Below are positions 2,491-28,382 of a stretch of DNA of 64,000 nucleotides, one piece after another. The stretch is from positions 69,198 through 133,197 of IMG/VR virus record IMGVR_UViG_3300036761_001580. One strand, given 5' to 3'. Position 1 is the first letter of the stretch. Every line of letters starts with the position of its first letter. The position numbers and the translations under genes were made by a program. The notes under the pieces are model-generated. The model was not told the origin of the DNA. It saw only the letters and a program-made list of their open reading frames with translations, and made no database searches. This DNA comes from a virus.

Positions 2491-2520
2491 CCGGTGTAGT
2501 CCGGTGTAGTCCGGTGTAGT
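2491..2520. repeat. Tandem repeat 3 x ccggtgtagt upstream of 2169..2453
   Basis: Perfect 10-bp x3 tandem copies seen directly. Confidence 0.7.
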
Positions 2521-2930
2521 TACGCGGCGCACACCTCCCCGTCCATGTCGACGGTGCGGTCCGTGCCGTCCTCGATGCACGCCAGGGTGTACGAGTCGCG
2601 AGCGCGGCGGGCGGCCTCGCGGCGACCCTTGTCCTCGGCGGCGATCTCGACACCCATGATCGCCAGGTCCCTCGCATCTACCAGGGCCGCGACCTCGGCC
2701 TTGCACCGGTCCACCACCGCGACGGCGCGGGCCACCTCGGAGGGGTGCGCCAGGTGCCGCACGACTTCGTTGATCTGCCCCGTCGCCCGGTCCACCTCGA
2801 CGCGCCGGACGGTCTTGTCTACCGTGGACAACTGCCGCACCGCGAGCGCGAGGTTCGACTTGGCCTTGTCGATCTTCCGGTTGTAGGTGTCCGCGATGAT
2901 CTTGATCTGGGGGTTGATCTTGGTCGCCAT
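2520..2930 (-). CDS. hypothetical protein (~136 aa)
   Basis: ORF 2520..2939; ATG at 2930 has GGAGGTG RBS 7 nt upstream; GTG 2939 is an alternative start. Confidence 0.6.
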   Translation of the reverse strand: MATKINPQIKIIADTYNRKIDKAKSNLALAVRQLSTVDKTVRRVEVDRATGQINEVVRHLAHPSEVARAVAVVDRCKAEVAALVDARDLAIMGVEIAAEDKGRREAARRARDSYTLACIEDGTDRTVDMDGEVCAA

Positions 2931-2966
2931 GTCTCGCACCTCCGTGGGTTTTTCTGCTACCCTCCC

Positions 2967-2995
2967 AATGTAACCACCCGCAAAGGGCGGTCAAG
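2967..2995 (-). promoter_or_regulatory. class A promoter cassette (minus-strand read: cTTGACc-N16-TACATTgggg)
   Basis: -10 aatgtaacc 2967-2975, -35 gtcaag 2990-2995 (revcomp). Confidence 0.55.
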
Positions 2996-2998
2996 GGT

Positions 2999-3283
2999 CT
3001 AGCCGCTCTTTTTCCAGGCGGCGCTCCGGTCCTTTGGTGTCACCGTCAAGGGGTCGAAACCGTATTCCTTGGCGGTACGATTCAACAGTTCCAACCTCTC
3101 GCGCGCCCTCTCGGTTCCGGCCTTGATCTCCGCGATCCACTCGTCTCCCGGATCGTCGTCACACAACCTTTCCGCCATGGCGATCAATTCAGGCTCACGA
3201 TTGATTCGAAAGATCGCATCGTTCCGCCTGTCGAACCAAGCCGCTCCGAGTCTCCCGTCCTTTTTGACCCAAGGCCTACCCAC
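2999..3283 (-). CDS. hypothetical protein (~94 aa, GTG start)
   Basis: Track ORF 2999..3367 overlaps upstream gene; GTG 3283 follows the upstream stop and an AGGGGCGGG RBS. Confidence 0.4.
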   Translation of the reverse strand: MGRPWVKKDGRLGAAWFDRRNDAIFRINREPELIAMAERLCDDDPGDEWIAEIKAGTERARERLELLNRTAKEYGFDPLTVTPKDRSAAWKKSG

Positions 3284-3293
3284 CGGCCCGCCC

Positions 3294-3605
3294 CTAATCC
3301 GCGCAACCGGCCGACTGTACCGCGATCTCGCGGCGGACGTTGGCGAGCGCCCGCGCCAGGATCTCATGCTCGCGCGGCGAGTAGGACGCGCCCGACAGGA
3401 GATCGACGAGCGCCCGGACGATCCACGACTCCCGGACGACGGCGGGCTTGTCCGCCGCGATGCACTCGTGCGCGAAGCGGGAGATCTTGACGATCCTGTC
3501 CTCGGCCGTCTCGACGGCGCGGGCTTTCTGCTTGGCGAGGTTGATCTGCTTGGCCGTCTTCTTGTCCTCGACCTTGACCCTCGCGATCTCCATCAGCTTT
3601 GCCAT
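3294..3605 (-). CDS. hypothetical protein (103 aa)
   Basis: ATG 3605 with GGAAAGGGG RBS directly downstream of a class A promoter. Confidence 0.6.
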   Translation of the reverse strand: MAKLMEIARVKVEDKKTAKQINLAKQKARAVETAEDRIVKISRFAHECIAADKPAVVRESWIVRALVDLLSGASYSPREHEILARALANVRREIAVQSAGCAD

Positions 3606-3651
3606 GTTGCGCCCCTTTCCGTTGCGGCCGTTCTCTTTCCCCTACCTCCCC

Positions 3652-3680
3652 AATATAACCATCGGTTTCGGCCGGTCAAG
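3652..3680 (-). promoter_or_regulatory. class A promoter cassette (-10 variant TATATT)
   Basis: aatataacc ... gtcaag; stop codon of 3676..3921 lies inside the -35. Confidence 0.5.
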
Positions 3681-3921
3681 GGGTGGACCGGTCGATTCCC
3701 CACGACTCTTTAACCATCCGATCCAGATCGAAAACACTGTCCGGGATCGCCCCTTTCCGCCCCAAGAGATTCCGCGCCATGGCCGTGGTTCCGTTTGCGT
3801 ACCAAACCGTAACGGTCCCGGAGCGCCGGATCGAAACCTGCAACACTCCGATCAAGGCCGCGACGAACGACGGCGGGACGATGACTTGAACCATACCGCG
3901 CTCGATCTCGTTGACGTTCAT
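3676..3921 (-). CDS. hypothetical protein (81 aa)
   Basis: Internal ATG 3921 with GAGGGGG RBS; upstream part of track ORF is just the promoter repeat read in frame; C-term ...GIDRSTP. Confidence 0.5.
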   Translation of the reverse strand: MNVNEIERGMVQVIVPPSFVAALIGVLQVSIRRSGTVTVWYANGTTAMARNLLGRKGAIPDSVFDLDRMVKESWGIDRSTP

Positions 3922-3959
3922 TCGGTCCCCCTCGGTTGCGGTCGTTGCCTCTCCCACCC

Positions 3960-3988
3960 AATCTAACCACCGGCTAGCGGCGGTCAAG
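3960..3988 (-). promoter_or_regulatory. class A promoter cassette (-10 variant TAGATT)
   Basis: aatctaacc ... gtcaag. Confidence 0.5.
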
Positions 3989-4004
3989 GGGTCGAGCGGT
4001 CGAT

Positions 4005-4643
4005 TTACCACCCGCGCACGACCTTCCGGTACTCATAGCGCGCGTGATCCGCCGTTTGGCCGCTCACCGCCTCATTCTCGCCCGCTGTCGTCATGGAGAT
4101 CGCGCCCGTTTTGTTCCGCTTCATGAAACCGCCCGCGACGAGGTTATCGATCTCTTCCGTCGTGACACCATACTCTTTCAACGCTTCGAGGCGATACGCG
4201 CCGCCCTTCGTACCCCGGACCGTTCCGAGAATGACCCTCTGACGCTCGGAAAGCTCGGCCTTGGCCGGGAGTAGGGGCGCGAGCGCCGCCGGGTTTACGC
4301 GGATCGTGGCGTACACCGGACGCCCGCCACCTTTGTGGCCCGTAATGACCGCGCCGTTTTCCGGGATCGGGTAATCCGCCCGGTCGTTGTCGACGGCGTT
4401 GCGTGGGTTAAACATGTTCGGACCGCCCCACGATCCCCACGTTGTGCGATTCTCGCCCGTCTCCAGGTTGACGACGGTCGCGAAAGCCTGGTATCCGTCG
4501 CCGCCCGCACTACTCAGGCTCGCCGTTTCGGCTGGCATAACGTCGATGCTTTTCCGCCCGTACCCCACGGAAGCGAGCGCCCTTTGAAGCGCCGCCGGAA
4601 GCTCTTTCACGTCCACCGCGATCCTGCCGTTGTCGAATGCCAT
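4005..4643 (-). CDS. hypothetical protein (212 aa)
   Basis: GC3-rich; ATG 4643 with GGGAGGG RBS downstream of a class A promoter. Confidence 0.7.
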   Translation of the reverse strand: MAFDNGRIAVDVKELPAALQRALASVGYGRKSIDVMPAETASLSSAGGDGYQAFATVVNLETGENRTTWGSWGGPNMFNPRNAVDNDRADYPIPENGAVITGHKGGGRPVYATIRVNPAALAPLLPAKAELSERQRVILGTVRGTKGGAYRLEALKEYGVTTEEIDNLVAGGFMKRNKTGAISMTTAGENEAVSGQTADHARYEYRKVVRGW

Positions 4644-4681
4644 GGGTTAGCCCTCCCGGTTGCGTTGCTTGCCTATCCCCC

Positions 4682-4710
4682 AATGTAACCACCGGCTAGC
4701 GGCGGTCAAG
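4682..4710 (-). promoter_or_regulatory. class A promoter cassette
   Basis: ccccaatgtaacc ... ggtcaagggg. Confidence 0.55.
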
Positions 4711-4761
4711 GGGCGGGCCGGTCGATTCTGCCCACCTCGCCGGAGGGCTCTAGTTGCCCCG

Positions 4762-4905
4762 CTAGCCGGCGAGCGCCCGGAGAACCCACCGGAGGGCCGC
4801 CGCGAGCTTTCCGGCCGCCCTGGTGCCGGTGGGGGCCTCGCCGCAACACCTTTTCAGCTTGCGGCCCGATCCGCACGGACAGGGATCGTTGCGCCCCGGT
4901 TTCAT
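4762..4905 (-). CDS. small SEC-C-motif zinc-binding protein (47 aa)
   Basis: [23 protein letters not shown] matches the SEC-C metal-binding motif; ATG overlaps upstream stop (tagATG); below 60 aa so absent from ORF track. Confidence 0.45.
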
Positions 4906-5040
4906 CTAGAGCGCCTCGTATTCGACCTTTGCGAACGTGACCCTCGCCCGTTGCAGGGACGTGTCGATTCCGAGAATCGTGTACACGTCGAGCATGGCAA
5001 GCTCGACCATGAGACGACGGGCCGCGCGATCTTTCGCCAT
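4906..5040 (-). CDS. hypothetical small protein (44 aa)
   Basis: ATG 5040 with AAGGAGAA RBS after a class A promoter; rest of 336-aa track ORF is an Arg/Ser-rich frame artefact. Confidence 0.45.
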   Translation of the reverse strand: MAKDRAARRLMVELAMLDVYTILGIDTSLQRARVTFAKVEYEAL

Positions 5041-5102
5041 GTGAAATTCTCCTTGTCGTGGGCGGATAGTCGGGCCGCCCGTTGCTTGTCTCGCCTTGCC
5101 CC

Positions 5103-5131
5103 AATGTAACCACCGGGGTGCGGCTGTCAAG
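5103..5131 (-). promoter_or_regulatory. class A promoter cassette
   Basis: ccccaatgtaacc ... gtcaagtgcc. Confidence 0.55.
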
Positions 5132-5134
5132 TGC

Positions 5135-5434
5135 CTAGCTTGCAAACCTTTCGAGGTGCGACTCGACGCCCAAGGCTTTCCCCTTGCGGCGGATCGCCTC
5201 GCGTTGCATATCATCGACGAGGGCGACCATAGCCGCGCCGTCGAACCTCCCCGCGCCGTGTCTCCGGTTGCACTCCAGGTCGACGAGGTCACCGCTACCC
5301 TTCTCGAATTGCGCCCATACGTTCCGCAAGCCGTGCAAGCCGGAACAAGGCCATGAATCCATGAACCCCTCGATCTCGTCTTCTCCGAACGAAACCGAGT
5401 AGAGACTGCCGTTATCGTAAACGCGGATCGCCAT
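5135..5434 (-). CDS. hypothetical protein (99 aa)
   Basis: ATG 5434 with GGGAGGG RBS; track N-terminus MVTLGRWG is the promoter repeat read in frame. Confidence 0.6.
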   Translation of the reverse strand: MAIRVYDNGSLYSVSFGEDEIEGFMDSWPCSGLHGLRNVWAQFEKGSGDLVDLECNRRHGAGRFDGAAMVALVDDMQREAIRRKGKALGVESHLERFAS

Positions 5435-5468
5435 GTCGCCCTCCCGGTTGTTCGCTCCCCACCTCCCC

Positions 5469-5497
5469 AATGTAACCACCGGCTAACGCCGGTCAAG
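5469..5497 (-). promoter_or_regulatory. class A promoter cassette
   Basis: ccccaatgtaacc ... ggtcaagggg followed by GGCCCGGTCGATTT upstream element. Confidence 0.55.
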
Positions 5498-5519
5498 GGG
5501 TGGCCCGGTCGATTTCCGA

Positions 5520-6005
5520 CTACTCGGCCGCAAGCTCCGGGTACCGCTCGATCTTGCGTTGCCGGTCCTCCTCGATCTCGCGGGCGCGTATCGGCGCGAC
5601 GTGGGCGAGCCAACGCTGATGGGACGCCTCGGCCTCGGCGCGTCGGCGGTTGTCCTCGCGCGTCCTCGCGGCCTTCCACGCGGCGGCGCTCCGGGGGCTG
5701 GCGTCCTCGCTGGCGCGCTTTGCGGCGGCGAGCGCCCCGGTGCGGCTGGCGTACCCCTGGAAAGTGCCGGGAGTCGTGACCGCGCCCGTCTTCCGGTTGA
5801 ACCGTCGAACGGTGAACCGGCGCGAGCATGGGATTACCTTCCCGCCGCACGGACCCCGGAACCGTTCCGACGTCACGAAAAAGCATCCGCCGGGACCGTC
5901 GAACGCATCGAGGCACACGCGGGAGTCGAAGAACCGCATAGAATCCTTGTCGAAGAAATGACCCTTCGCGACCTTGCGGATCTCGTCAGTGTTGTAGAAT
6001 CTCAT
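5520..6005 (-). CDS. hypothetical protein (161 aa)
   Basis: ATG 6005 with CCGGAGGTG RBS; GC3-rich. Confidence 0.65.
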   Translation of the reverse strand: MRFYNTDEIRKVAKGHFFDKDSMRFFDSRVCLDAFDGPGGCFFVTSERFRGPCGGKVIPCSRRFTVRRFNRKTGAVTTPGTFQGYASRTGALAAAKRASEDASPRSAAAWKAARTREDNRRRAEAEASHQRWLAHVAPIRAREIEEDRQRKIERYPELAAE

Positions 6006-6038
6006 GCCGCACCTCCGGGGTTTTTCTTGCCTACCCCC

Positions 6039-6067
6039 AATGTAACCACCGGCTAGCGGCTGTCAAG
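6039..6067 (-). promoter_or_regulatory. class A promoter cassette
   Basis: cccccaatgtaacc ... tgtcaaggg. Confidence 0.55.
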
Positions 6068-6069
6068 GG

Positions 6070-6483
6070 CTAAACGCACCACCCGTCTTCGGCACCCCCG
6101 AAAGAGTTGTATGCACCCGTGCGCGGGGTGTGGATCTTGATCGCCGCGCCGCGCGGGTCACCGTTGAAATGGATCGACAGGCCGATCCGCTTGGCAAGCT
6201 CTTCGGCCTCGGCGCGGAGCTTGGCCTCGCGCCGTTCGTCGCGGAGCTTTCCCGCCTCGTCTTCGCGCCCCGTCCGCTCGTGGACGTAGCCGTTGCACTG
6301 GCGGGTGAAGATCGCGCGGAGCGCCCGCTCGATCCTTTCGAACGTGACGGTGTCCTCGACGGCGTTGAGAACCGCGAGCCGGATCTTGTTCTTTCGGACC
6401 GTGTGAAATTCGCTGTCTTTCGTCTCTTCCAAAACCGTCAACGCGGTACGAAGCGTCTCCATTGTGATCTTGGGCTCGTTCAT
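6070..6483 (-). CDS. hypothetical protein (137 aa)
   Basis: ATG 6483 with GGGGGAGGG RBS; upstream MVTLGQGT is the promoter repeat. Confidence 0.6.
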   Translation of the reverse strand: MNEPKITMETLRTALTVLEETKDSEFHTVRKNKIRLAVLNAVEDTVTFERIERALRAIFTRQCNGYVHERTGREDEAGKLRDERREAKLRAEAEELAKRIGLSIHFNGDPRGAAIKIHTPRTGAYNSFGGAEDGWCV

Positions 6484-6526
6484 GGCGTCCCTCCCCCGGT
6501 TGCGGTCGTTCGCTGTCCCTTGCCCC

Positions 6527-6555
6527 AATGTAACCACCGGTTGCGGGCTGTCAAG
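6527..6555 (-). promoter_or_regulatory. class A promoter cassette
   Basis: ccccaatgtaacc ... tgtcaaggg. Confidence 0.55.
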
Positions 6556-6557
6556 GG

Positions 6558-6731
6558 CTAGGGTGCGATCTCCTCGATGATCTTCGCCCTCTCGGCCTGG
6601 ACGTCGGCGAGGAATTCGGCCCGCGCCTCGCTCCTCGTGTAGTACAGGTACTTGCGCCGCACCAGATACCCGTTGACCCTCGCGGACAGTACCAGATACC
6701 CGTTGACCGTCTTTTCGACCGTGATCTTCAT
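6558..6731 (-). CDS. hypothetical small protein (57 aa) with internal in-frame 30-bp tandem duplication
   Basis: ATG 6731 with GGGGAGGAAACC RBS; duplication accagatacccgttgacc at 6661-6708 gives VNGYLV x2. Confidence 0.5.
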   Translation of the reverse strand: MKITVEKTVNGYLVLSARVNGYLVRRKYLYYTRSEARAEFLADVQAERAKIIEEIAP

Positions 6732-6762
6732 GGTTTCCTCCCCGGTTGCCGTCCCTTGTCCC

Positions 6763-6791
6763 AATGTAACCACCGGCTAGCGGCGGTCAAG
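6763..6791 (-). promoter_or_regulatory. class A promoter cassette
   Basis: cccaatgtaacc ... ggtcaagtgcc. Confidence 0.55.
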
Positions 6792-6798
6792 TGCCTGT

Positions 6799-7119
6799 CT
6801 ACCGGAAAAACTCGACGGTGCGGAGCCCTTCGATCTCCCGCACGGCGTCTTTGGCCTCGGCGCGGCTGTCCGCCCGGACGAACACCTCGACGGTACGATC
6901 CGCGTTGACCGCATGGTACAGGTTGGCGGGCATTCCCCAATACGCGCCGCCCGTGTCATAGCAACCGTCCACGAAGCGGAGACGGCGGAGGTGGAGCTTG
7001 CACGCGGGGCCGACGTTGTAGTACGTGGCACCTTTGTACTCTTCCGTGGGAATTCGGTTCCCGCGACCCATCGGAGCACCGTACTTACTGGAAACATTTG
7101 TGATCCCCGGATACGCCAT
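6799..7119 (-). CDS. hypothetical protein (106 aa)
   Basis: Internal ATG with GAGGGAAGGTG RBS; upstream track residues are the promoter repeat. Confidence 0.6.
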   Translation of the reverse strand: MAYPGITNVSSKYGAPMGRGNRIPTEEYKGATYYNVGPACKLHLRRLRFVDGCYDTGGAYWGMPANLYHAVNADRTVEVFVRADSRAEAKDAVREIEGLRTVEFFR

Positions 7120-7163
7120 GGTCCACCTTCCCTCGGTTGCGGCCGTTCGCTGTCCCTTGCCCC

Positions 7164-7192
7164 AATGTAACCACCGGCTAGCGACGGTCAAG
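7164..7192 (-). promoter_or_regulatory. class A promoter cassette
   Basis: ccccaatgtaacc ... ggtcaagggg + GGGCCGGTCGATTC upstream element. Confidence 0.55.
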
Positions 7193-7212
7193 GGGTGGGC
7201 CGGTCGATTCTC

Positions 7213-7677
7213 CTAGAACCACTCCCGCCCGGACATGGACACCGCGAGCGTCCCGTCCGCCCGGACGTTCGCCTCACGACCGAAAAAGAACTTCATGAGA
7301 CGGGCCTGGTTGCCCTTCTCGTCGTCGTCCGCCACCGGGGCCGTGGAAGTACGGGCCGGGGCCGGAACGGAGCTAGAAAGGCCACGCTCGCGCCGCCTGT
7401 CGGCGAGCGGCGGGTACTCCATGACGTTCCGGGGGTTCCACTCCCCCGCGCAGATGTAAGGTTCGTCCCCTTCCGTCTTCGTGTACGATACCGTGTCCTC
7501 GACTCGCCCTCTACGTCGGAGGTGTACCCCGTGGCACACGATAGCGACGATGGTAGCCGGAAGTGCGACAGCGCACCACATACAGATCCGGTGCCCGGTC
7601 GCGTCCTCGATCCCGTGTGTGGGGTACATATCGGTATCGATGCTTGTCGCCCCGCAACACTCGCAAGTGCCTATCAT
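7213..7677 (-). CDS. hypothetical Cys-rich protein (154 aa)
   Basis: GC3-rich ORF with several CxxC pairs; downstream of a class A promoter. Confidence 0.6.
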   Translation of the reverse strand: MIGTCECCGATSIDTDMYPTHGIEDATGHRICMWCAVALPATIVAIVCHGVHLRRRGRVEDTVSYTKTEGDEPYICAGEWNPRNVMEYPPLADRRRERGLSSSVPAPARTSTAPVADDDEKGNQARLMKFFFGREANVRADGTLAVSMSGREWF

Positions 7678-7722
7678 CGGAGTCTCCTTAGTTTGGGTGG
7701 GTAGTCGGCCCGCCTGGCTCCC

Positions 7723-7751
7723 AATGTAACGCTCGCTTTCATGCTGTCAAG
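7723..7751 (-). promoter_or_regulatory. class A promoter cassette (diverged spacer)
   Basis: cccaatgtaacg ... tgtcaagagg. Confidence 0.5.
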
Positions 7752-7754
7752 AGG

Positions 7755-8336
7755 CTAGCGCGAAAGCGCCTCGTACTCTTCCCACGTATCGTAACGGATG
7801 TAATCGTCGTGTTTCATCGGGCCGCACAACTTGTCGAACGTGGGGCGATCCCACAGGTTCGGATGGTGGCACGGGGCCGAGTCGCTACGGGACGTCTCTT
7901 TGAACCCTCGCCGCTCCATCTCCATGACGAACGCGGATTCGTTGTCGAACGTGAGCATCCCCCCTTCCAGGCCGCAAACCATGTACTTGAGCGGGGTGCC
8001 TACGTCCTCCGGGAAGAGCATCGCCTGGCCGCACCCGACGTCTTTCATCCAGTAGCCCGATCCGTCCGATGCGTACCACACGATCTCCAGAAGCGTGTTG
8101 TCCGCCTTCCGAATGATCGCGTGCAGGTTGTTCATGCCGTCGAACCACCCGCCCGACTTGACGAACGTCGTCACCACCTCGACCCTGAACCGGCTCACCA
8201 GGGCCGGAAGCGCCCGCTTGGCGAGCGCGAGGTGGTACTCGACGAACGACTTGGGCACCATGCCGCCCATGAGTGCCGACTTCTTCATGTCGTTGACGAC
8301 TTCGGCCGGAAGCGTGCCCTTCTCCCCGATGCTCAT
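7755..8336 (-). CDS. hypothetical protein (193 aa)
   Basis: GC3-rich ORF; RBS GAGGAGGAC upstream. Confidence 0.65.
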   Translation of the reverse strand: MSIGEKGTLPAEVVNDMKKSALMGGMVPKSFVEYHLALAKRALPALVSRFRVEVVTTFVKSGGWFDGMNNLHAIIRKADNTLLEIVWYASDGSGYWMKDVGCGQAMLFPEDVGTPLKYMVCGLEGGMLTFDNESAFVMEMERRGFKETSRSDSAPCHHPNLWDRPTFDKLCGPMKHDDYIRYDTWEEYEALSR

Positions 8337-8373
8337 GTGGTCCTCCTCGGTTGTTCGTTTCCCCTGGCTGGGA

Positions 8374-8402
8374 ATGTAACCACCGGTTTCAGGCTGTCAA
8401 GT
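8374..8402 (-). promoter_or_regulatory. class A promoter cassette
   Basis: gggaatgtaacc ... tgtcaagtgc. Confidence 0.5.
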
Positions 8403-8403
8403 G

Positions 8404-8541
8404 CTACTCCGGGTCAATCCCCTCCGCCGCTTCCACGAGGTCCTCGACAACCTCGTCCACCTCTTTCGACGTGAGGTCCTCCGGGGTTTCCAAGGCCGCC
8501 GCCGCGCGTCGGAGCAAGGCCGCGAGATCACGAGGCTTCAT
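8404..8541 (-). CDS. small acidic protein (~45 aa)
   Basis: ATG 8541 placed 5 nt after TAG of 8544..8789; the track's longer N-terminus overlaps the upstream gene. Confidence 0.4.
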   Translation of the reverse strand: MKPRDLAALLRRAAAALETPEDLTSKEVDEVVEDLVEAAEGIDPE

Positions 8542-8543
8542 GA

Positions 8544-8789
8544 CTACACCGTCTCCGGGTCGATCTCGACGGCGACCATCTTGTCCCCGTACTCGTCCAG
8601 GAGCTTCGCCAGATCGGACGCGAAGCGGACCGACGCCGACTCGTCGGTCATGCAAAACCGGACGCGCCCGTTGCGTATCGTGCGGACGACGACGTTGTGC
8701 ACCTTGGACCTATCCGAAAGCGTCTGCTCTTCCTCGTACAGATCAACGTGATCCGTGTGAACCGTATCCATGATCTTGAATCCGTCCAT
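8544..8789 (-). CDS. hypothetical protein (81 aa); first gene of leftward early arm
   Basis: ATG 8789 with ACGAGGAGGACAAC RBS directly downstream of the divergent class A promoter. Confidence 0.6.
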   Translation of the reverse strand: MDGFKIMDTVHTDHVDLYEEEQTLSDRSKVHNVVVRTIRNGRVRFCMTDESASVRFASDLAKLLDEYGDKMVAVEIDPETV

Positions 8790-8828
8790 GTTGTCCTCCT
8801 CGTTTGGTCGTTGCCCTGCCTACCGGGG

Positions 8829-8857
8829 AATGTAACCATGGGGAAAAGAGAGTCAAG
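8829..8857 (-). promoter_or_regulatory. class A promoter (leftward member of divergent pair)
   Basis: ggggaatgtaacc ... agtcaagcccc. Confidence 0.55.
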
Positions 8858-8861
8858 CCCC

Positions 8862-8889
8862 TTGACCTCCGAAAACCCGGTGTTACATT
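8862..8889 (+). promoter_or_regulatory. class A promoter (rightward member of divergent pair)
   Basis: ccccTTGACCtccgaaaacccggtgtTACATTgggg. Confidence 0.55.
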
Positions 8890-8930
8890 GGGGCAAGGCG
8901 GCCAGACTACCGCACAACAGGGAGGACGAG

Positions 8931-9155
8931 ATGGCGGATATGAAGTTCAAGAAAGAATGTATCACGAGGAGCGTTTGCCCATACTGCGGGAGTCGCAACA
9001 CGAAGGACGAGGGTGAAAGCCTCTATGAGGCAAACGAAGAGGACATCAAGCTGTACATCTGCGGGTGCCACGATTGCGGAAAGGAATGGCGCAACGTCTT
9101 CCGCCAGATCGACGTGATCGAGGGTGACGTGTACCCGGAGGTTGACGAGCCCTAG
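8931..9155 (+). CDS. small zinc-ribbon protein (74 aa); paralog of 12117..12329
   Basis: RBS GGGAGGACGAG-ATG; CPYCG...CGCHDCGKEW motif; conserved 5' leader. Confidence 0.65.
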   Translation: MADMKFKKECITRSVCPYCGSRNTKDEGESLYEANEEDIKLYICGCHDCGKEWRNVFRQIDVIEGDVYPEVDEP

Positions 9156-9159
9156 GCAC

Positions 9160-9187
9160 TTGACAGCCACTATCCTGTGGTTACATT
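9160..9187 (+). promoter_or_regulatory. class A promoter cassette
   Basis: cTTGACAgccactatcctgtggtTACATTgggg; leader near-identical to 8890-8930. Confidence 0.55.
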
Positions 9188-9228
9188 GGGGCAAGGCGGC
9201 ACGACTACCGCACAACAGGGAGGACGAC

Positions 9229-9411
9229 ATGGGAAAGAAGAAATCCAAGACGTTCGACGTCACGATCCGGGCAACGATCACGAAGACCATCACCGTCGAG
9301 GCCAAGGACGAAGACGAGGCCTGCGAGATCGCGCACGGGGAGTTCTCGGTGCTGAACGACGATGACCCCGAGGATTACGACGAGGAAACCGTCAACGTCG
9401 AAGAAGTCTGA
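9229..9411 (+). CDS. hypothetical small acidic protein (60 aa)
   Basis: RBS GGGAGGACGAC-ATG; GC3-rich. Confidence 0.55.
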   Translation: MGKKKSKTFDVTIRATITKTITVEAKDEDEACEIAHGEFSVLNDDDPEDYDEETVNVEEV

Positions 9412-9412
9412 C

Positions 9413-9610
9413 ATGACGAAACGAGCACAAAGGATAATCATCAGTCCCGAGCAAGAGGCCAGGGACGAGTACCTCTCGGCGCTCGCGACCTACCGGGAGG
9501 TCCGGCACGCGCCGGGCTCCGAGGACGAGGCGATCCGTGCCGTGCGAGCGGTCATGGATCGGGCCTATGACCTGTACGTCAAGACGTGCCACCCGAGGAG
9601 GGCAACATGA
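9413..9610 (+). CDS. hypothetical protein (~65 aa)
   Basis: ATG 3 nt after the previous TGA; GC3-rich. Confidence 0.5.
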   Translation: MTKRAQRIIISPEQEARDEYLSALATYREVRHAPGSEDEAIRAVRAVMDRAYDLYVKTCHPRRAT

Positions 9611-9861
9611 TCAAGAAGAAGCCGGAAGAGACGGGGATCGAGTTCCTCCGTCGTCTCGTAAGCGTGGCGAATTACACGAACGAGGAGGTGTTCGACGATC
9701 TCTCCGTCGAGGAGACGATCAAGCTCATCCGCGCGTGTTGGGATTCCGAGTTCGACATCTACGCAGACGCACTGTCGCCCAGCGAGAGGGCTTTCGCGGC
9801 GCGGACCGGTAAGCTGTCGAAGAAAGCCGTTGACCGGCTCAACAGCCTGTATGGGGACTAA
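9607..9861 (+). CDS. hypothetical protein (84 aa)
   Basis: ATGA overlap with upstream stop; RBS GAGGAGGG. Confidence 0.6.
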   Translation: MIKKKPEETGIEFLRRLVSVANYTNEEVFDDLSVEETIKLIRACWDSEFDIYADALSPSERAFAARTGKLSKKAVDRLNSLYGD

Positions 9862-9877
9862 AAGACCGCGCAACCCC

Positions 9878-9905
9878 TTGACACCCCGCAATCGATGGTT
9901 AGATT
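9878..9905 (+). promoter_or_regulatory. class A promoter cassette (-10 TAGATT)
   Basis: ccccTTGACAccccgcaatcgatggtTAGATTagggg. Confidence 0.5.
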
Positions 9906-9940
9906 AGGGGTACGAGGGCAACGCAACCGAGGAGGTCGAA

Positions 9941-10258
9941 ATGAGATCCGAAATGAAGAGTGCCGGACGCGCAGCGGCGGCCGTTCCGTTCGAGAAGGTG
10001 GAGCTGTCGAAGACGCTGGAAGCCGTGGCGTTCGTCCAGGTGTGCCTGGGGTGCGCTTACGACTCTCTCAAGTCGGGTGAGGTCGAGGACAACCCCGAGC
10101 CGCCCATGGACCTGGAGGGGATCGTGGAGGACATCAATCACGCTTGCGAGAAGCTCCAAAGGGAGATCCGCAAGCTCGACAGGAACACGCGCCTGGCGCT
10201 CGACATCGAGGTGGATCACACCTACGATCTCGTGCACCGCAACAGCCCGACGAGGTAG
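9941..10258 (+). CDS. hypothetical protein (105 aa)
   Basis: RBS GAGGAGGTCGAA-ATG. Confidence 0.65.
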   Translation: MRSEMKSAGRAAAAVPFEKVELSKTLEAVAFVQVCLGCAYDSLKSGEVEDNPEPPMDLEGIVEDINHACEKLQREIRKLDRNTRLALDIEVDHTYDLVHRNSPTR

Positions 10259-10269
10259 GGGAGGACGTC

Positions 10270-10545
10270 ATGAGCGGTTTCAATTGGGCAGGGTTCGTTA
10301 GCGTAATCCCCGAGGACATCACCCTCGTGGGCAACGCCAGGGGCAACATGAAGATCCTGGCGCAAGTCTTGGACGAGGGGTTCGAGGGCATGAAGCCGAT
10401 CTCCGAGGCGCGCAAGCGGGTGCTCGTGAGGAGCATCGAGAAGTTCACCATGGCGGCGACCGAGCTGAAACTGCTCTTGGAGGCGTTCTCCGCCGATCTG
10501 GAGTGCCGCGAGGCCGGGATCGACCCCACGGGCAACGAGGGCTAG
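10270..10545 (+). CDS. hypothetical protein (91 aa)
   Basis: RBS GGGGAGGACGTC-ATG; the track's upstream 42 aa are an Arg-rich artefact. Confidence 0.6.
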   Translation: MSGFNWAGFVSVIPEDITLVGNARGNMKILAQVLDEGFEGMKPISEARKRVLVRSIEKFTMAATELKLLLEAFSADLECREAGIDPTGNEG

Positions 10546-10563
10546 AAAGAGCCGAGTAGCCTC

Positions 10564-10591
10564 TTGACACCCCGCTAGGGGTGGTTACATT
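10564..10591 (+). promoter_or_regulatory. class A promoter cassette
   Basis: cctcTTGACAccccgctaggggtggtTACATTgggg. Confidence 0.55.
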
Positions 10592-10638
10592 GGGGATAGG
10601 CGGGATGACTACCCGCCGGCAACGACAAGGAGAACCCG

Positions 10639-11082
10639 ATGGACGAGAAGACGAAAATCCCGATGGATCTGCGGATCTTCATCGACGATGAGACGGAGTT
10701 CTACAACGGCATCCCGGACGGGGTGGGCAAGATCTTTTCGGCGCACCTCTTCGACGCGAACCTGGACGTGCACATCTGCTCGTTCCAGGCGAACAAGGAG
10801 TGCTACTACATCGGCCACACGTTCACCACGACGCGGGATATGACCGATGAGGAGCTGGAAGCGGCGGACGAGTACCTCCGGGAAGCGAACCGCGAGGAGC
10901 CGCGCGTCGACTACTTCGACGGCAAGATCAAGGGGCACCCCTATACGGTCGAGCCGCGCCCCAAGGCAGACGACCCCGAAGAGGCGCAGAGGCTTTACGA
11001 AGAGGTCATGGAGGAGCACATCGAGTACCTCGTCTGCAACTCCGAGACATGGGATTGTCTGGTCGGAAAGCCGGTCGAGTAG
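10639..11082 (+). CDS. hypothetical protein (147 aa)
   Basis: RBS AAGGAGAACCCG-ATG; leader stem-loop GGCGGG-atgACTAC-CCGCC. Confidence 0.7.
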   Translation: MDEKTKIPMDLRIFIDDETEFYNGIPDGVGKIFSAHLFDANLDVHICSFQANKECYYIGHTFTTTRDMTDEELEAADEYLREANREEPRVDYFDGKIKGHPYTVEPRPKADDPEEAQRLYEEVMEEHIEYLVCNSETWDCLVGKPVE

Positions 11083-11085
11083 CCC

Positions 11086-11113
11086 TTGACAGCCGCTCCC
11101 CGATGGTTACATT
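11086..11113 (+). promoter_or_regulatory. class A promoter cassette
   Basis: cccTTGACAgccgctccccgatggtTACATTgggg. Confidence 0.55.
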
Positions 11114-11147
11114 GGGGATAGGCGAGAAGAACAACGGGAGGGACATC

Positions 11148-11645
11148 ATGGACGCAAGGATGAAGGTCGCGAACGAGCTGAAGAAGGAGATCCGGCGATC
11201 CCTGGGCAACTACCCCAAGGTGACGAAGGTCGAGGTTCTCGGCCTGGAGAACGAGGGGCTCATGATCGCTGTCCGGTACCACACGACCGACGTCGTGAAG
11301 CTGTACCTGAACAAGGCGGGTTACGCGGTCATGTCGGTCGTGGTGACTTCGGGCGGGTGGATCTCGAAAACGACCGCCGAGCGGATCAACGCGGTGCTCC
11401 GCCACTTGAAGACGGGGTTCTTCGTGCGGTTCACCTACAAGCGGGAGACGTTCGCACGGGGCACCATGGGCCGCCAGATGGGCGACAGCCTGTACGACCA
11501 GAAGTTCACGCTCGTGGGACAGGGGATCGAGATGCCCTTCGAAGACGGGATGACGTTCAAGCGGGGCCGGGACGGGTTCAAGCTCACGTACCCCGGCAAG
11601 GCCGCGCAGAAGAGGCTCGCGAAGGTCGTCGTCGCGAAGAGGTAG
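11148..11645 (+). CDS. hypothetical protein (165 aa)
   Basis: RBS GGGAGGGACATC-ATG. Confidence 0.7.
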   Translation: MDARMKVANELKKEIRRSLGNYPKVTKVEVLGLENEGLMIAVRYHTTDVVKLYLNKAGYAVMSVVVTSGGWISKTTAERINAVLRHLKTGFFVRFTYKRETFARGTMGRQMGDSLYDQKFTLVGQGIEMPFEDGMTFKRGRDGFKLTYPGKAAQKRLAKVVVAKR

Positions 11646-11654
11646 GAGGACGCC

Positions 11655-11885
11655 ATGAAGAAGGTTATCGAAGTCAGCAAGGCGACAAAGGGTCAGATCT
11701 CGGTGCGGCTCGCGTTGCTCCGAGAGCAGGTAGAGACGCTCCGCGAAGACCTCGTGGTCGAGGACAGCGACAGCCAAGAGGCAAGCGACACCCTGGGGAC
11801 CATCCTCGACCTCATGATCGAGGCCGAGGGCTACCTGGACGCGGACGATCCGAACCAGGCAGAACACCTGGAGACGGGCGTCTAG
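11655..11885 (+). CDS. hypothetical acidic protein (76 aa)
   Basis: RBS GAGGTAGGAGGACGCC-ATG. Confidence 0.6.
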   Translation: MKKVIEVSKATKGQISVRLALLREQVETLREDLVVEDSDSQEASDTLGTILDLMIEAEGYLDADDPNQAEHLETGV

Positions 11886-12073
11886 TGCCACTCTTCATAG
11901 TGACGAAAAAGGAGATCTGGCGGCAGCGTGTCCTCGTCGAAGCCGAAGACGCAAACGAAGCCCGGTACAAAGCCGAGAAGGGCGAATCCGAGATCCATGA
12001 AGATCCACAGTACGAGGATGACCTCCTCGACAGGTTGTGGGCGGTAGAAGAGATTGAAGACCACACCGCTTGA
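11886..12073 (+). CDS. possible small protein (62 aa, GTG start)
   Basis: GTG immediately after TAG; GC3-rich acidic frame; stop TGA sits inside the next -35. Confidence 0.35.
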
Positions 12074-12097
12074 CAGTCACTCAGGGATGGTTACATT
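12070..12097 (+). promoter_or_regulatory. class A promoter cassette
   Basis: cgcTTGACAgtcactcagggatggtTACATTcc. Confidence 0.5.
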
Positions 12098-12116
12098 CCA
12101 AGCAGGAGGGACGAAC

Positions 12117-12329
12117 ATGGCGAAGATGAACTTCAAGGACGAGTGCCTGGCGAGCGGCGGATCGAAGTGCCCGTACTGCGGAAAGTACAACACCTGGGAG
12201 CACTCGATCACGGACAGCGACGACGAGGACGACGTCAAGAAGGTCACCGTCGAGTGCCACGATTGCGGCAAGGAGTGGACCGCCACCTTCCGCATCGAGG
12301 ACGTGACCGAAGTCGACGAGGAGGTCTGA
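12117..12329 (+). CDS. small zinc-ribbon protein (70 aa); paralog of 8931..9155
   Basis: RBS AGGAGGGACGAAC-ATG; CPYCGKYN...CHDCGKEW. Confidence 0.65.
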   Translation: MAKMNFKDECLASGGSKCPYCGKYNTWEHSITDSDDEDDVKKVTVECHDCGKEWTATFRIEDVTEVDEEV

Positions 12330-12330
12330 G

Positions 12331-12525
12331 ATGGCAACGAAGAAAACCATGCCGAAATGGCTCCGGAAGCTCTCGGCCGTGCAGAGGAAGCACCTCGCGG
12401 AGACGTGCGACGACGGGGTGACGCTTCGAGCATTCTGGAACAACCGCCAGTACCAGAAGGATCACTACATCGTATGCCGGGAATGCGAGGACATCGAGCA
12501 CCGGCTGACCGCCGAGAAGAGTTGA
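12331..12525 (+). CDS. hypothetical protein (64 aa)
   Basis: RBS CGAGGAGGTCTGAG-ATG; CRECEDIEH. Confidence 0.6.
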   Translation: MATKKTMPKWLRKLSAVQRKHLAETCDDGVTLRAFWNNRQYQKDHYIVCRECEDIEHRLTAEKS

Positions 12526-12535
12526 ACCCAGCCCC

Positions 12536-12563
12536 TTGACAGCCGCTCCCCGATGGTTACATT
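12536..12563 (+). promoter_or_regulatory. class A promoter cassette
   Basis: ccccTTGACAgccgctccccgatggtTACATTagggg. Confidence 0.55.
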
Positions 12564-12612
12564 AGGGGTAGGAGAGGCGAGCTGACTACTCGCACTGAAC
12601 AAGGAGAACATC

Positions 12613-12885
12613 ATGGACCTGAACAAGCTGATCGAGATCGTGGACGAGGGATACCCGGACGGGTTCGTGAAGCGGTGCTTCGACAACCCGAAGAAGGACC
12701 ACGGGGATACCCTGGCACTCTTCCTGGCCCGAGAGGTCAAGGACACGTTCGACGCGGACGCGACCGACGAGGCGCAGGTAGCCGAGGCGATCCGCGTCAT
12801 GGAGATGGCCCGGCGGGAGCTGGGAGACGTGCTCGTGGTCCTGGAGCGAGTCAAATTCACCAAGACCGGCAACGCGGTGAGGTAG
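12613..12885 (+). CDS. hypothetical protein (90 aa)
   Basis: Conserved leader hairpin GCGAG-ctgACTAC-tCGC + AACAAGGAGAAcatc-ATGGAC. Confidence 0.65.
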   Translation: MDLNKLIEIVDEGYPDGFVKRCFDNPKKDHGDTLALFLAREVKDTFDADATDEAQVAEAIRVMEMARRELGDVLVVLERVKFTKTGNAVR

Positions 12886-12889
12886 TCCG

Positions 12890-13135
12890 ATGGGCGAGGC
12901 ACGACGCCGAGCGGCAACCCGAGAAGAGCGCGCAGCTCAGAGCATCGCGCGCAAGGCTCGTGCCGAGGAGGCCAAGCGGGAAGACGCGCACAAGTGGTGG
13001 GAGGGCCTGACCGAAGAGGAGAAGGAATCCCAGCGGAAGGTGTGGCACGAGAAGGACAAGAAGCGAGCCAACGCGCGGCTGGTCATGGCGGCAGCAATGG
13101 GTCTGTTCGTCGGGGCAGATAGGGGGCTGAAATGA
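12890..13135 (+). CDS. hypothetical basic/coiled protein (81 aa)
   Basis: RBS GAGGTAG; Lys/Glu/Arg-rich. Confidence 0.55.
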   Translation: MGEARRRAATREERAAQSIARKARAEEAKREDAHKWWEGLTEEEKESQRKVWHEKDKKRANARLVMAAAMGLFVGADRGLK

Positions 13136-13353
13136 AACTGTGCCGCGACCAATTCGTAAAGAATGCATCGATAGGCCCCGATGCCCTCGTGGAGTTCTAT
13201 TGCACACGGAAAGCCGGTCATGCAGGGAAGCATTCCTGTGAGGTACAGAGCCTTCGTAGGGAGTCCGATAAAGGCTGGGTAAATGACGGATTCCCAATGG
13301 ACGACGTGAGTGACGGAGAGGGCACGCGCAAGGTGGGTATTCTTTCCTGGTAG
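13132..13353 (+). CDS. hypothetical protein (73 aa); start of a lower-GC patch
   Basis: ATGA overlap; local GC ~52%. Confidence 0.5.
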   Translation: MKLCRDQFVKNASIGPDALVEFYCTRKAGHAGKHSCEVQSLRRESDKGWVNDGFPMDDVSDGEGTRKVGILSW

Positions 13354-13359
13354 TAGCCC

Positions 13360-13387
13360 TTGACAGCCTCTCCCGAGTGGTTACATT
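13360..13387 (+). promoter_or_regulatory. class A promoter cassette
   Basis: cccTTGACAgcctctcccgagtggtTACATTcc. Confidence 0.5.
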
Positions 13388-13404
13388 CCAGGTAGGAGGA
13401 CAGC

Positions 13405-13562
13405 GTGGACACCGAGAAGAAACGACGTGCGAAGAGTGACAAGCTGGCGCTCGAAGAGCTGGTCGAGGAGATCGAGCCGGTAGAGCCGGTCGAGAAGAGG
13501 GTACGATCCTGGTTGCCGAAATTGGGTGACGTCCTCAACCTCCAGCCGACGAGAGCAAAGTG
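13405..13562 (+). CDS. possible small protein (52 aa, GTG start)
   Basis: RBS AGGTAGGAGGACAGC-GTG; below ORF-track size cutoff. Confidence 0.35.
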
Positions 13563-13799
13563 ACTTTGAAAGTCAAGATGCACCGTATCGTCCAAGGAGA
13601 CGACCTCTTAGAAAGAGCAGAGAAGCTCGGGCTCCCCGACGACTGCCAGCTCGCACTCATAGACGGACAATGGGCTCCGGCATTCCGTTGGGTTAGAGAA
13701 TATTACCTCCGCCGGGGTTCGTCGGATATCAGAAGTACGGCATGGGTTCTTATCAACGCCCACATCATAGAAGAGTATGAAGTCGAAGTGCAAGAATGA
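13560..13799 (+). CDS. hypothetical protein (79 aa)
   Basis: Overlapping start with previous stop; lower GC. Confidence 0.5.
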   Translation: MTLKVKMHRIVQGDDLLERAEKLGLPDDCQLALIDGQWAPAFRWVREYYLRRGSSDIRSTAWVLINAHIIEEYEVEVQE

Positions 13800-14104
13800 A
13801 ATCGAACGAGTGTATAGGTTGCGGATTTTGTTGCCGCAAAAGTCCGTGCAGTTTCTACCAGCTCGAAGATTGGGCAGCGTGGCACGGGTGCCCGCACCTC
13901 TTGTGGGACGGCACTCGGTGGGTGTGCGGAAAGTACGTCGAAGAGCCCGATACGAAGGTGAAAGAGCGTATGAAATTCTATCTCGCATTCGGCGCGGGTT
14001 GCAACTGCAATTTGAACACGTATAGGCGCACTTGCCACGTCCCGACACCGGAGGAACTGAAGGATGAAAAAGCCCTGCTTGACCGACTCCACAAGACCAA
14101 GTGA
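13796..14104 (+). CDS. hypothetical Cys-rich protein (102 aa)
   Basis: ATGA overlap; CIGCGFCC...CNCN pattern; lower GC (moron-like). Confidence 0.55.
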   Translation: MKSNECIGCGFCCRKSPCSFYQLEDWAAWHGCPHLLWDGTRWVCGKYVEEPDTKVKERMKFYLAFGAGCNCNLNTYRRTCHVPTPEELKDEKALLDRLHKTK

Positions 14105-14333
14105 GCCGGTCGTAAAGTCTCCCGGGGTCAATGTGCCCCCGGAATTCAAGGTCTTCATGATGCTCATGGCGCGGTCGTTCTCCGGGAGTGACTCCGTCTC
14201 CACGGCACTGAACCAACTGAGAAAACTCCTCACAGACAAGCACGGTCCCGAGTACGCAAATGCTTACGTGTACGAGCTAGCGCAAGCCTACGCTTCGAGG
14301 CGCTCGAAGTTCATGCAGGATTTCTGCGGTTAG
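14064..14333 (+). CDS. hypothetical protein (up to 89 aa; start uncertain)
   Basis: ORF overlaps previous gene by 40 nt; an internal ATG at ~14157 is an alternative start. Confidence 0.35.
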   Translation: MKKPCLTDSTRPSEPVVKSPGVNVPPEFKVFMMLMARSFSGSDSVSTALNQLRKLLTDKHGPEYANAYVYELAQAYASRRSKFMQDFCG

Positions 14334-14337
14334 CTCT

Positions 14338-14365
14338 TGACAGCCTCACTATAGTAGTTATATTC
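14338..14365 (+). promoter_or_regulatory. class A promoter cassette (-10 TATATT)
   Basis: ctcTTGACAgcctcactatagtagtTATATTccc. Confidence 0.5.
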
Positions 14366-14412
14366 CCAAGTAGGAGAAGCGAGCTGACCCTCGCTGAACA
14401 AGGAGAAGATCA

Positions 14413-14508
14413 TGGACATCTACAAACGTCCCGATGACGATGAGGGCCCCGATGACGATGAATACGATGAAGACCGCTACGGCGACAATCACGAGGACGA
14501 GGAGTAGA
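14413..14508 (+). CDS. tiny acidic peptide (31 aa)
   Basis: Conserved leader hairpin + AACAAGGAGAAgatc-ATGGAC as at 12613; MDIYKRPDDDEGPDDDEYDEDRYGDNHEDEE. Confidence 0.35.
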
Positions 14509-16379: not shown

Positions 16380-16695
16380 CGCAGCCCCTCTAAGCCTTTC
16401 GACCAAAAACCCGCACTCGGACAGCCTGAACGCCGGCAGGGCCTTAGAACGGCTCCTGGAGGGCTCAGAATGGATCGGGTATTGACTTAGGTGGGACCTT
16501 CGGAACCACCTTCCAAGGGCATGTAGTTATTTCCTTCGTACACCGACGATCTTCATCCCGAAAGGAGCAGGCAGACGACAAGGGCTTGACGCACCGAGCC
16601 TTCACCCGGGGCGGGACTGTAATCGGACGGGTGGGCTCGTCTTCGCGGATCATGAGCCCCATCATACAACTCTACGGTTTGGAAATGTAAAAAAT

Positions 16696-16763
16696 GGCCC
16701 CCGGCGGCGACAAGGAGAACACCGCCAGGGGCCGAGGGTAGTGGCCGGGTGACTATTCCGGCC
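16696..16763. terminator. Pair of GC-rich hairpins in the convergent intergenic region (putative bidirectional terminators)
   Basis: ggcccccggcgg-N14-ccgccaggggcc and ggccgg-gtgactatt-ccggcc between the + and - gene blocks. Confidence 0.3.
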
Positions 16764-16899
16764 TCCTCAGTGACAGGGCCGAAGCCCTTAGGGCATTCTG
16801 AACAGGTGCCCTGGTCCTGTGGGAGCGTGATGTCTCTGCGCTCCGTTCAGTGTTAAATATAGCCATGCCAAGGACGATGTCAAGAAGACCCTTCAGCTA

Positions 16900-21623: not shown

Positions 21624-21656
21624 TCCTTGATAGCTTTAGCCCTGCTGAACTATATA

Positions 21657-28304: not shown

Positions 28305-28347
28305 ATCGTCCCTCCGGGTGTTGTAGCTATACGCAGCTAGGTTTCAC

Positions 28348-28376: not shown

Positions 28377-28382
28377 AGGCAA

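Follow-up and report, generated by a model that had tools for sequence, protein, structure and literature searches.

Why does a nearly identical promoter-like repeat stand in front of so many small genes in one region of a large phage genome? The question is raised by a 64,000-nucleotide stretch (hereafter the window, W) of an uncultivated phage of about 206 kb and 60% GC (IMG/VR record IMGVR_UViG_3300036761_001580), in which the repeat forms an array between positions 2967 and 14364. The anatomy of the repeats, their statistics and the chimeric junctions that separate related genomes can be read directly. The answer that we regard as probable is that the repeats are portable promoter-leader cassettes, which would provide strong early expression and would be shuffled and patched by homologous recombination.

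The pattern TTGAC-N17-TANATT was matched 25 times in the window, versus 0.02 matches expected from shuffled sequences. The array holds 22 of these sites, 13 on the minus strand forming a left arm (2967-8856) and nine on the plus strand forming a right arm (8862-14364), while the remaining three matches are an isolated copy at 22719-22746 and two look-alikes at 16856-16883 and 41403-41430, all on the minus strand. About 23 cassettes with this same 13/9 strand split had been counted in the initial annotation, in agreement with 22 copies in the array plus the one at 22719; the latter exists as described, except that the pattern search places its end at 22746 and not at 22747. The cassette family was recovered independently by repeat finding, as direct and inverted copies of 34-97 nt, and a position weight matrix (PWM) built from the copies revealed no extra degenerate members in the array and none in shuffled sequence. 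The divergent arms begin at back-to-back -35 boxes (8856 and 8862) with 5 bp between them. A Logan contig of the same genome (L001) breaks inside the cassette at 4682-4709, and such cassettes mark break points of short-read assemblies.

Relatives were sought in several ways. A megablast search of the array against INPHARED phages gave no match. The correctly spaced cassette pattern is TTGAC-N13-TGGTTANATTGGG, and IMG/VR was scanned with the strict pattern TTGAC-N13-TGGTTACATTGGG, validated on the window beforehand. A single viral contig was obtained, R (211,982 bp), with all 10 of its strict-pattern matches inside 108.8-137.8 kb. Its two arms are arranged as in the window and hold 22 copies of the looser motif, and in blocks R is 78-98% identical to the window. 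Three further sequences were found by a protein homology search with DUF7447 followed by contig look-ups: S, a 60-kb contig with at least 25 cassettes that is represented by two independent assemblies (99.99% identical); L018, a fragment that constitutes a short fourth variant; and L017, a more distant fragment (protein 62% identical) with four cassettes of the same architecture in 2.4 kb and the -10 hexamer TAAATT. The back-to-back arrangement of -35 boxes is kept in all three larger genomes.

Promoter and leader anatomy of the cassettes

Alignment of all copies from W and one relative gave the consensus a.CcC-TTGACaGcC...a.ccggTGGT-TACATT-ggggn.aGG. In all 22 copies, the hexamers match the sigma-70 consensus at 9-11 of 12 positions. 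According to the promoter scan, the spacing is 16 nt in every copy, and the -10 hexamer varies (TACATT in 18 array copies, TATATT in two and TAGATT in two), both as initially described. Among 48 distinct 28-mers taken from three genomes, TTGAC, G-14, T-13, T-12, A-11, A-9, T-8 and T-7 do not vary. Only the third base of the -10 hexamer is free: the window copies have C, T or G there, and those of the more distant L017 have A. Such invariant positions, together with a free third -10 base, are the pattern expected of primary sigma recognition.

Directly after the -10 hexamer, GGGG occupies positions -6 to -3 in 17 of the 22 window copies. According to PMC3526302, which cites Haugen 2006 and Feklistov 2006, GGGA at these positions is a basal element read by sigma region 1.2. 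Since the GGGG discriminator corresponds to this known element, a phage protein recognising it, for which the initial annotation had suggested a search, is not required. The likeness to GGGA extends to the 17 GGGG copies, whereas the other five are opposite in character, with the C-rich discriminators given in the list below. Where orthologues of these five cassettes are present in R or S, their discriminators are non-GGG too and usually read the same. Promoters that are otherwise identical may therefore fall into two kinetic classes.

The bases A-G-G are conserved at predicted positions +1 to +3, with the A located 7 nt past the -10 hexamer. Each copy is oriented into its arm and is followed, 17-62 nt after the -10, by a start codon (ATG or GTG), always with a GGAGG-like Shine-Dalgarno (SD) sequence, so that leaders of about 11-56 nt are expected. 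Every sequence-level property open to checking fits a promoter, and at the level of sequence the promoter interpretation is well supported. The repeated N-termini MVTLGQG and MVTLGRW were correctly attributed to translation of the cassette, from a GTG inside CCGGTGGTTACATT: from 6537 downward the frame reads VVTLGQG..., from 5479 downward VVTLGRW..., and both continue in frame into the true ATG. This is a warning for annotation, as N-termini such as MVTLGQG are a translated promoter.

At the upstream edge, the distance from the preceding stop codon to the -35 hexamer is bimodal. About half of the copies lie 3-4 nt from the stop (TAG-CCC-TTGACA) and a quarter lie 16-23 nt from it (TAG-gAAATCGACCGG.CCACCCC-TTGACC). 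This corrects the initial annotation, in which the cassette usually starts within 0-5 nt of the previous stop codon. Likewise, the TGA of TTGAC serves as a stop codon in two of the four cases proposed (3676 and 12073), the other two being open reading frames (ORFs) that begin inside a cassette. TAG is the stop codon of 21 of the 31 array genes (2500-14400) versus 22 of 64 elsewhere in the window, an excess that arises because TAG belongs to the conserved 5' edge of the cassette (TAGCCC-TTGACA). An A-rich patch is found upstream in one cassette subfamily only, and AATCGACCGG occurs about 20 nt upstream of the -35 in one subfamily and is kept in L017.

Seven of the 22 leaders, mostly in the right arm, contain a stem-loop, which also occurs in R and S. 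Its loop reads nnGAC(U/C)(A/C), with GACUA in six of the seven and GACC in the seventh (14379-14394), on stems that differ (GGCGGG/CCCGCC, GCGAG/CUCGC, GGGCGG/CCGCCC). It could act as an mRNA stabiliser or as a binding site for a regulator.

The cassette cores are listed below with their strands and the genes that they are predicted to drive, as called with a codon-usage model trained on the long ORFs of the window; leader hairpins lie on the strand of their cassette.

Left arm
2967-2994, minus: TTGACC..TACATT; predicted driver of 2520-2930 (136 aa)
3652-3679, minus: -10 TATATT; predicted driver of 3294-3605 and 2999-3283; the TGA in TTGA is the stop codon of gene 3676-3921
3960-3987, minus: -10 TAGATT; predicted driver of 3676-3921 (81 aa)
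4682-4709, minus: predicted driver of 4005-4643 (212 aa)
5103-5130, minus: gap from -10 to ATG of 62 nt; predicted driver of 4906-5040 and 4762-4905; leader hairpin 5060-5080
5469-5496, minus: predicted driver of 5135-5434 (99 aa)
6039-6066, minus: predicted driver of 5520-6005 (DUF7447); one chimeric cassette, where R has cassette-X(837 nt)-cassette
6527-6554, minus: predicted driver of 6070-6483 (137 aa)
6763-6790, minus: predicted driver of 6558-6731 (57 aa), whose orthologue in R is without this cassette
7164-7191, minus: predicted driver of 6799-7119; downstream flank of a 526-nt module missing in R
7723-7750, minus: predicted driver of 7213-7677; upstream flank of the 526-nt module; leader hairpin 7696-7714
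8373-8400, minus: C-rich discriminator CCCA; predicted driver of 7755-8336 (193 aa)
8829-8856, minus, innermost: C-rich discriminator CCCC; predicted driver of 8544-8789 and 8404-8541

Right arm
8862-8889, plus, innermost: predicted driver of 8931-9155 (Zn-ribbon protein); leader hairpin 8898-8913
9160-9187, plus: predicted driver of 9229-9411 (DpnD/PcfM-like) and 9607-9861; leader hairpin 9196-9211
9878-9905, plus: -10 TAGATT; predicted driver of 9941-10258 and 10270-10545; upstream flank of a 686-nt module missing in R
10564-10591, plus: perfect spacer dyad CACCCC-GCTA-GGGGTG; predicted driver of 10639-11082; leader hairpin 10599-10617; downstream flank of the 686-nt module
11086-11113, plus: predicted driver of 11148-11645, 11655-11885 and 11885-12073
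12070-12097, plus: C-rich discriminator CCAA; predicted driver of 12117-12329 (Zn-ribbon paralogue) and 12331-12525; the TGA in TTGA is the stop of 11885-12073
12536-12563, plus: predicted driver of 12613-12885 and the next genes; leader hairpin 12577-12593
13360-13387, plus: C-rich discriminator CCAG; predicted driver of 13405-13563 and the next genes up to 14333
14337-14364, plus, outermost: -10 TATATT; C-rich discriminator CCCA; predicted driver of 14412-14507 and the next genes to about 16.4 kb; leader hairpin 14379-14394

Outside the array
22719-22746, minus: isolated copy; predicted driver of 22335-22688 (117 aa)
16856-16883, minus: look-alike promoter TTGACA-16-TATATT, followed by a structured non-coding stretch with no ORF
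41403-41430, minus: weak look-alike with a PWM score of 18.6 (versus 30-63 for array copies), upstream of gene 40829-41380

In terms of gene numbers, 13 cassettes stand against 16-17 genes in the left arm and nine against about 22 in the right arm. A single promoter for each gene is thus approximately true of the left arm but untrue of the right one, where one to seven genes follow each cassette. To consider each early gene as its own transcription unit, as had been done, is also an overstatement, in view of these right-arm operons and of the lack of terminator enrichment: 16 terminator-like sites were found versus 12.1 expected, and none of the 16 is on the coding strand of an arm. With no terminators between units, the transcripts of successive promoters should overlap by read-through. 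As for the products, two of the 20 array proteins scanned (DUF7447 and DpnD/PcfM) reached the curated cutoff of Pfam and the other 18 did not; sub-threshold Pfam matches only were obtained for two paralogous Zn-ribbon proteins and a few others.

Gene modules and junctions in related genomes

Clustering of the arm proteins showed that gene order is conserved, that whole promoter-gene modules are present or absent, and that the content differs in every relative. This is illustrated by the following orders of promoters (P) and protein families (numbers):

W, left arm: P[1 2] P[3] P[4] P[5] P[6] P[7] P[8] P[9] P[10 11] P[12]...
R, left arm: P[18] P[1] P[3] P[5 6] P[7] P[19] P[21] P[8] P[9] P[23 10 11] P[12]...
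S, left arm: P[18] P[1 2] P[3] P[4] P[5] P[6] P[20] P[22] P[7] P[19] P[] P[21] P[8] P[23 10] P[12]...
L018: P[8], then directly P[12]

Cassettes were also gained or lost before conserved genes (families 6, 16 and 17). Similar, near-identical promoter-plus-leader units precede non-homologous genes, and orthologous genes bear patchwork cassettes. Besides, two zinc-ribbon paralogues with a CPYCG motif (8931-9155 and 12117-12329, both plus), weakly similar to Lar and DUF3268, lie behind different cassettes of the same arm, and R contains an in-array duplicate gene as well (family 58). Such in-array paralogues fit unequal exchange between cassettes.

The ends of the homology blocks, counted on the window side, were then compared with the positions of the cassettes. 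Between W and R, 18 of 20 block ends fall within 45 nt of a cassette core (P = 3e-10), and between W and S 22 of 25 do so (P = 6e-12), versus 22.5% expected by position in both comparisons. Three indels could be read at the base level, each as [cassette]-X-[cassette] in one genome versus a single chimeric cassette in the other. In the R cassette at 13991, the upstream flank is that of W 9878, and from the spacer on the sequence is that of W 10564. In the opposite direction, W 6066 consists of the upstream half of R 10418 through TTACATTGGGG, followed by the leader and gene of R 9520. Finally, R 11475 joins the upstream flank of W 7750 to the leader of W 7191, with a middle patch that resembles a cassette of the opposite arm. 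The crossovers thus lie in the -35/spacer region, in the cassette body or in the leader, and such differing positions favour homologous recombination and gene conversion over a site-specific system. From the sequences compared, the cassettes are recombination joints at which related genomes differ in gene modules, a property absent from the initial annotation.

A candidate mechanism and its alternatives

Each repeat would act as a portable expression cassette of about 75-100 nt comprising, from 5' to 3', often the TAG stop of the prior gene, sometimes an A-rich patch, the promoter, a short 5' untranslated region, a GGAGG ribosome-binding site and the ATG. The host RNA polymerase would read the sigma-70-type promoter (TTGACA, 16 nt, G-14, TAnATT, GGG and an A start), and the 22 copies in two divergent arms would lead to strong early expression of about 38 small genes, mostly of unknown function, accumulating by read-through for want of terminators between cassettes. 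Within an arm, the copies are direct repeats of nearly the same sequence, so that homologous recombination among them would be expected; it would delete, insert, duplicate or swap promoter-gene modules, and patch the cassettes too. Such recombination and patching from cassette to cassette would keep the copies alike and the region hyperplastic.

Several points weigh against this mechanism. Whole-gene indels end between genes in any case, and about 22 of the 38 array junctions carry a cassette, so that some of the enrichment of breakpoints near cassettes is to be expected. In the right arm, several replacements begin where the junction has no cassette, and short cassette-only BLAST matches somewhat inflate the breakpoint counts. 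The spacer flanks (GCC...CCGGTGGT) are conserved beyond the known needs of RNA polymerase, and this extra conservation may come from common descent or from a regulator. Moreover, we infer transcription, start sites, strength, early timing, use of the host polymerase and the recombination enzymes from the sequence.

The conserved flanks lead to a first rival, compatible with the proposed mechanism, in which the copies are operator-promoters bound by a phage or host regulator that switches the early set together. In the 48 distinct copies, GCC next to the -35 and CCGGTGG next to the -10 are at least 70% conserved while the spacer centre is free; the subfamily element AATCGACCGG is retained upstream in L017, and the loop of the leader hairpin is conserved on differing stems. 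However, no regulator was found, sigma contacts explain all invariant positions, no extra element is common to all copies, and common descent with gene conversion explains the similarity equally well. We hold this possibility to be rather unlikely, yet the least so among the alternatives. A little less likely still is a composite promoter-terminator, in which a stem-loop in the spacer would attenuate read-through and insulate each gene. Indeed, GACCGCCG and CGGTGGTT of the consensus spacer can pair, in part through G-U pairs functional on the sense strand only, about one third of the copies fold at -8 kcal/mol or better (z of about -3 to -4), and the proposed register pairs 70.8% of cells versus 23-49% in slid registers. 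Nevertheless, no covariation was detected over the 48 distinct copies, pairing being 69.7% after shuffling and as high as the observed value in 100 of 500 shuffles, on which ground the spacer hairpin was rejected as a conserved structure. The hairpin is weak or absent in two thirds of the copies, its stem is not followed by a U-tract, and the terminator scan described above showed no enrichment and no site on the coding strands of the arms. The lack of covariation, the weak folds and the missing U-tract leave a terminator function unsupported.

Other alternatives concern the machinery that reads or exchanges the repeats. It is doubtful, though conceivable, that the array serves as a dedicated gene-capture platform, where a phage recombinase promotes the exchange of ready-to-express ORFans from cassette to cassette between co-infecting relatives, perhaps via excised promoter-ORF mini-circles, and where a phage factor binding the leader hairpin (GACUA) or the spacer flanks times or limits the set. 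Reading of the promoters by a phage-encoded sigma factor or RNA polymerase, in place of the holoenzyme with the host primary sigma, appears very unlikely. Large phages commonly possess their own transcription machinery, and the window represents only 64 of about 206 kb; but the motif corresponds to the canonical pattern of group-1 sigma factors (TTGACA, 16 nt, TAnATT and a GGG discriminator), no sigma or polymerase domain was detected among about 50 window proteins scanned against Pfam, and looser sigma-70-like promoters precede other genes of the window too. The least probable possibility, which we consider close to negligible, is an integron-like site-specific system with the repeats as recombinase sites and their promoter resemblance secondary. 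As such a system would have it, conserved repeats separate single small ORFs, and relatives differ by the presence or absence of entire modules. Against this, the crossover points differ among the three resolved junctions, the repeats stand upstream of genes with complete promoter and SD signals, no attC-like imperfect palindrome has covariation support, and no integrase turned up in the window proteins that were scanned. A miniature inverted-repeat transposable element or transposon was also considered and rejected, since each copy runs in the direction of its arm's genes and no terminal inverted repeats could be seen in the flanks read, though no formal test was made.

Among known systems, the closest comparison is with the elements named PeSLs (promoter-early stem-loops), described in the T4-type phages phi1/RB49, T4/PST and KVP40/nt-1 (Arbiol et al., 2010, PMC2839356; Comeau et al., 2014, PMC4122927). 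PeSLs are repeated early sigma-70-like promoters equipped with a stop codon upstream, an A/T-rich patch, a stem-loop (which most often lies between -35 and -10), an SD and a start; they concentrate before ORFans in hyperplastic regions, and their recombination explains indels between phi1 and RB49 and yields mini-circles (PMC2839356; PMC4122927). The present array resembles them in its dozens of near-identical cassettes of about 100 bp, in the same layout (with the A/T-rich patch restricted here to a subfamily) and in its location in a hyperplastic region, ahead of ORFans. Cassettes also bound the indels that distinguish close relatives, a single chimeric cassette being left after deletion, and G-T pairs are found in the spacer stem. 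In contrast to PeSLs, the array lies in an uncultivated phage of about 206 kb with 60% GC, has a spacer of 16 nt instead of 17, lacks support for a stem-loop or terminator (no covariation, no U-tract, absent in two thirds of the copies) and is strictly organised in two divergent arms from back-to-back -35 boxes. No T4-like hallmarks were found among the window proteins scanned against Pfam and PHROGs, from 64 of about 206 kb. By analogy, the array may be regarded as a PeSL-like variant that works like PeSLs in expression and shuffling, not as a member of the PeSL family.

According to the summary in PMC3950731, the haloarchaeal virus HGTV-1 has a motif made of a TATA box plus an inverted repeat before most left-arm ORFs. 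As far as that summary goes, the likeness lies in a promoter motif repeated before most genes on one side of a large genome, that of a tailed virus, and proposed for regulation and shuffling, while the HGTV-1 motif is of the archaeal promoter type and has no sequence relation to the present one. Integron arrays have in common with the locus the single small genes between conserved repeats and the gain or loss of whole cassettes; they differ by having downstream attC hairpins where upstream promoters stand here, and the crossovers here are variable, with no integrase found among the window proteins scanned.

Lytic phages also carry early arrays, such as the host-takeover module of SPO1 or the early region of T4, in which many strong host-type promoters and ribosome-binding sites serve short takeover genes. 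The early promoters of SPO1 and T4 are not known to share more than their functional boxes, whereas spacer flanks, leader and even the upstream stop are shared here, which points to copies related by descent and conversion.

No report of such an arrangement in GC-rich or uncultivated large phages was found in the literature searched. The locus would therefore extend mobile regulatory cassettes, known in AT-rich T4-type phages and suggested in one haloarchaeal virus, to an unrelated GC-rich lineage of uncultivated phages of about 200 kb, and it appears as a clear example of a known principle in a new phage lineage. The same cassette accompanies different gene modules in five independent assemblies, and the chimeric junctions are readable base by base. 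The shuffling proposed here would provide a mechanism for the turnover of ORFan early genes in large phages while their expression is kept. The compact promoter-leader unit is also a candidate strong expression part.

Other features of the window

Scans of early and large proteins against Pfam and PHROGs gave almost no matches, with no sigma factor, polymerase or integrase in about 50 window proteins, and Rfam returned a transfer-messenger RNA (tmRNA) and one tRNA only, with no match for cassettes, leaders or the candidate non-coding RNA described hereafter. Outside the array, a looser set of sigma-70-like promoters, cTCTTGAC(A/T)-N17/18-TATAgT/TATATT, without the conserved spacer or leader, was observed upstream of genes at:

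21618-21683, minus
28305-28382, minus
34751-34823, minus
41381-41433, minus
44743-44815, minus

Behind the look-alike promoter at 16856-16883 (minus), a candidate structured non-coding RNA of about 160 nt extends over 16688-16849 (minus), with neither ORF nor SD. It folds at -77.1 kcal/mol (z of -4.4), and ends in a 14-bp GC stem followed by U6. R has a version of it with 95-98% identity, preceded by a promoter that is a good copy of the array cassette (class A).

Next to the isolated cassette lies an IS605-family TnpB element at about 22772-24045 (minus; tnpB ORF 22787-23995). Homology among four TnpB loci stops at a hairpin and TAGTTCAC, at about 22772, some 25 nt from the end of the cassette (22746), which places the isolated cassette outside the element. 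The content of this site is different in R. The element was discarded as a clue to the host, its closest homologues (73-78% identity) being in unrelated phage contigs without the cassette.

Further along the window, 30747-33485 (minus) encodes a 912-aa protein that has shoulder and repeat domains of the major vault protein; over 73% of its length, it shares 44% identity with proteins of uncultured phages of 735 kb and 462 kb (LR756500, LR756501, LR756503). A phage-borne tmRNA at 34385-34750 (minus) specifies the tag ADADVIPFPKMAVPSLQRAA, and a tRNA-Pro(TGG) is found at 33554-33630 (minus). The protein encoded at 29437-29907 (minus) has a Tad2-like (Thoeris anti-defence 2) domain. About 3 kb beyond the left edge of the window, at 7771-9600 of L001, a second gene encodes a 609-aa protein with a Cas12f1-like TNB domain.

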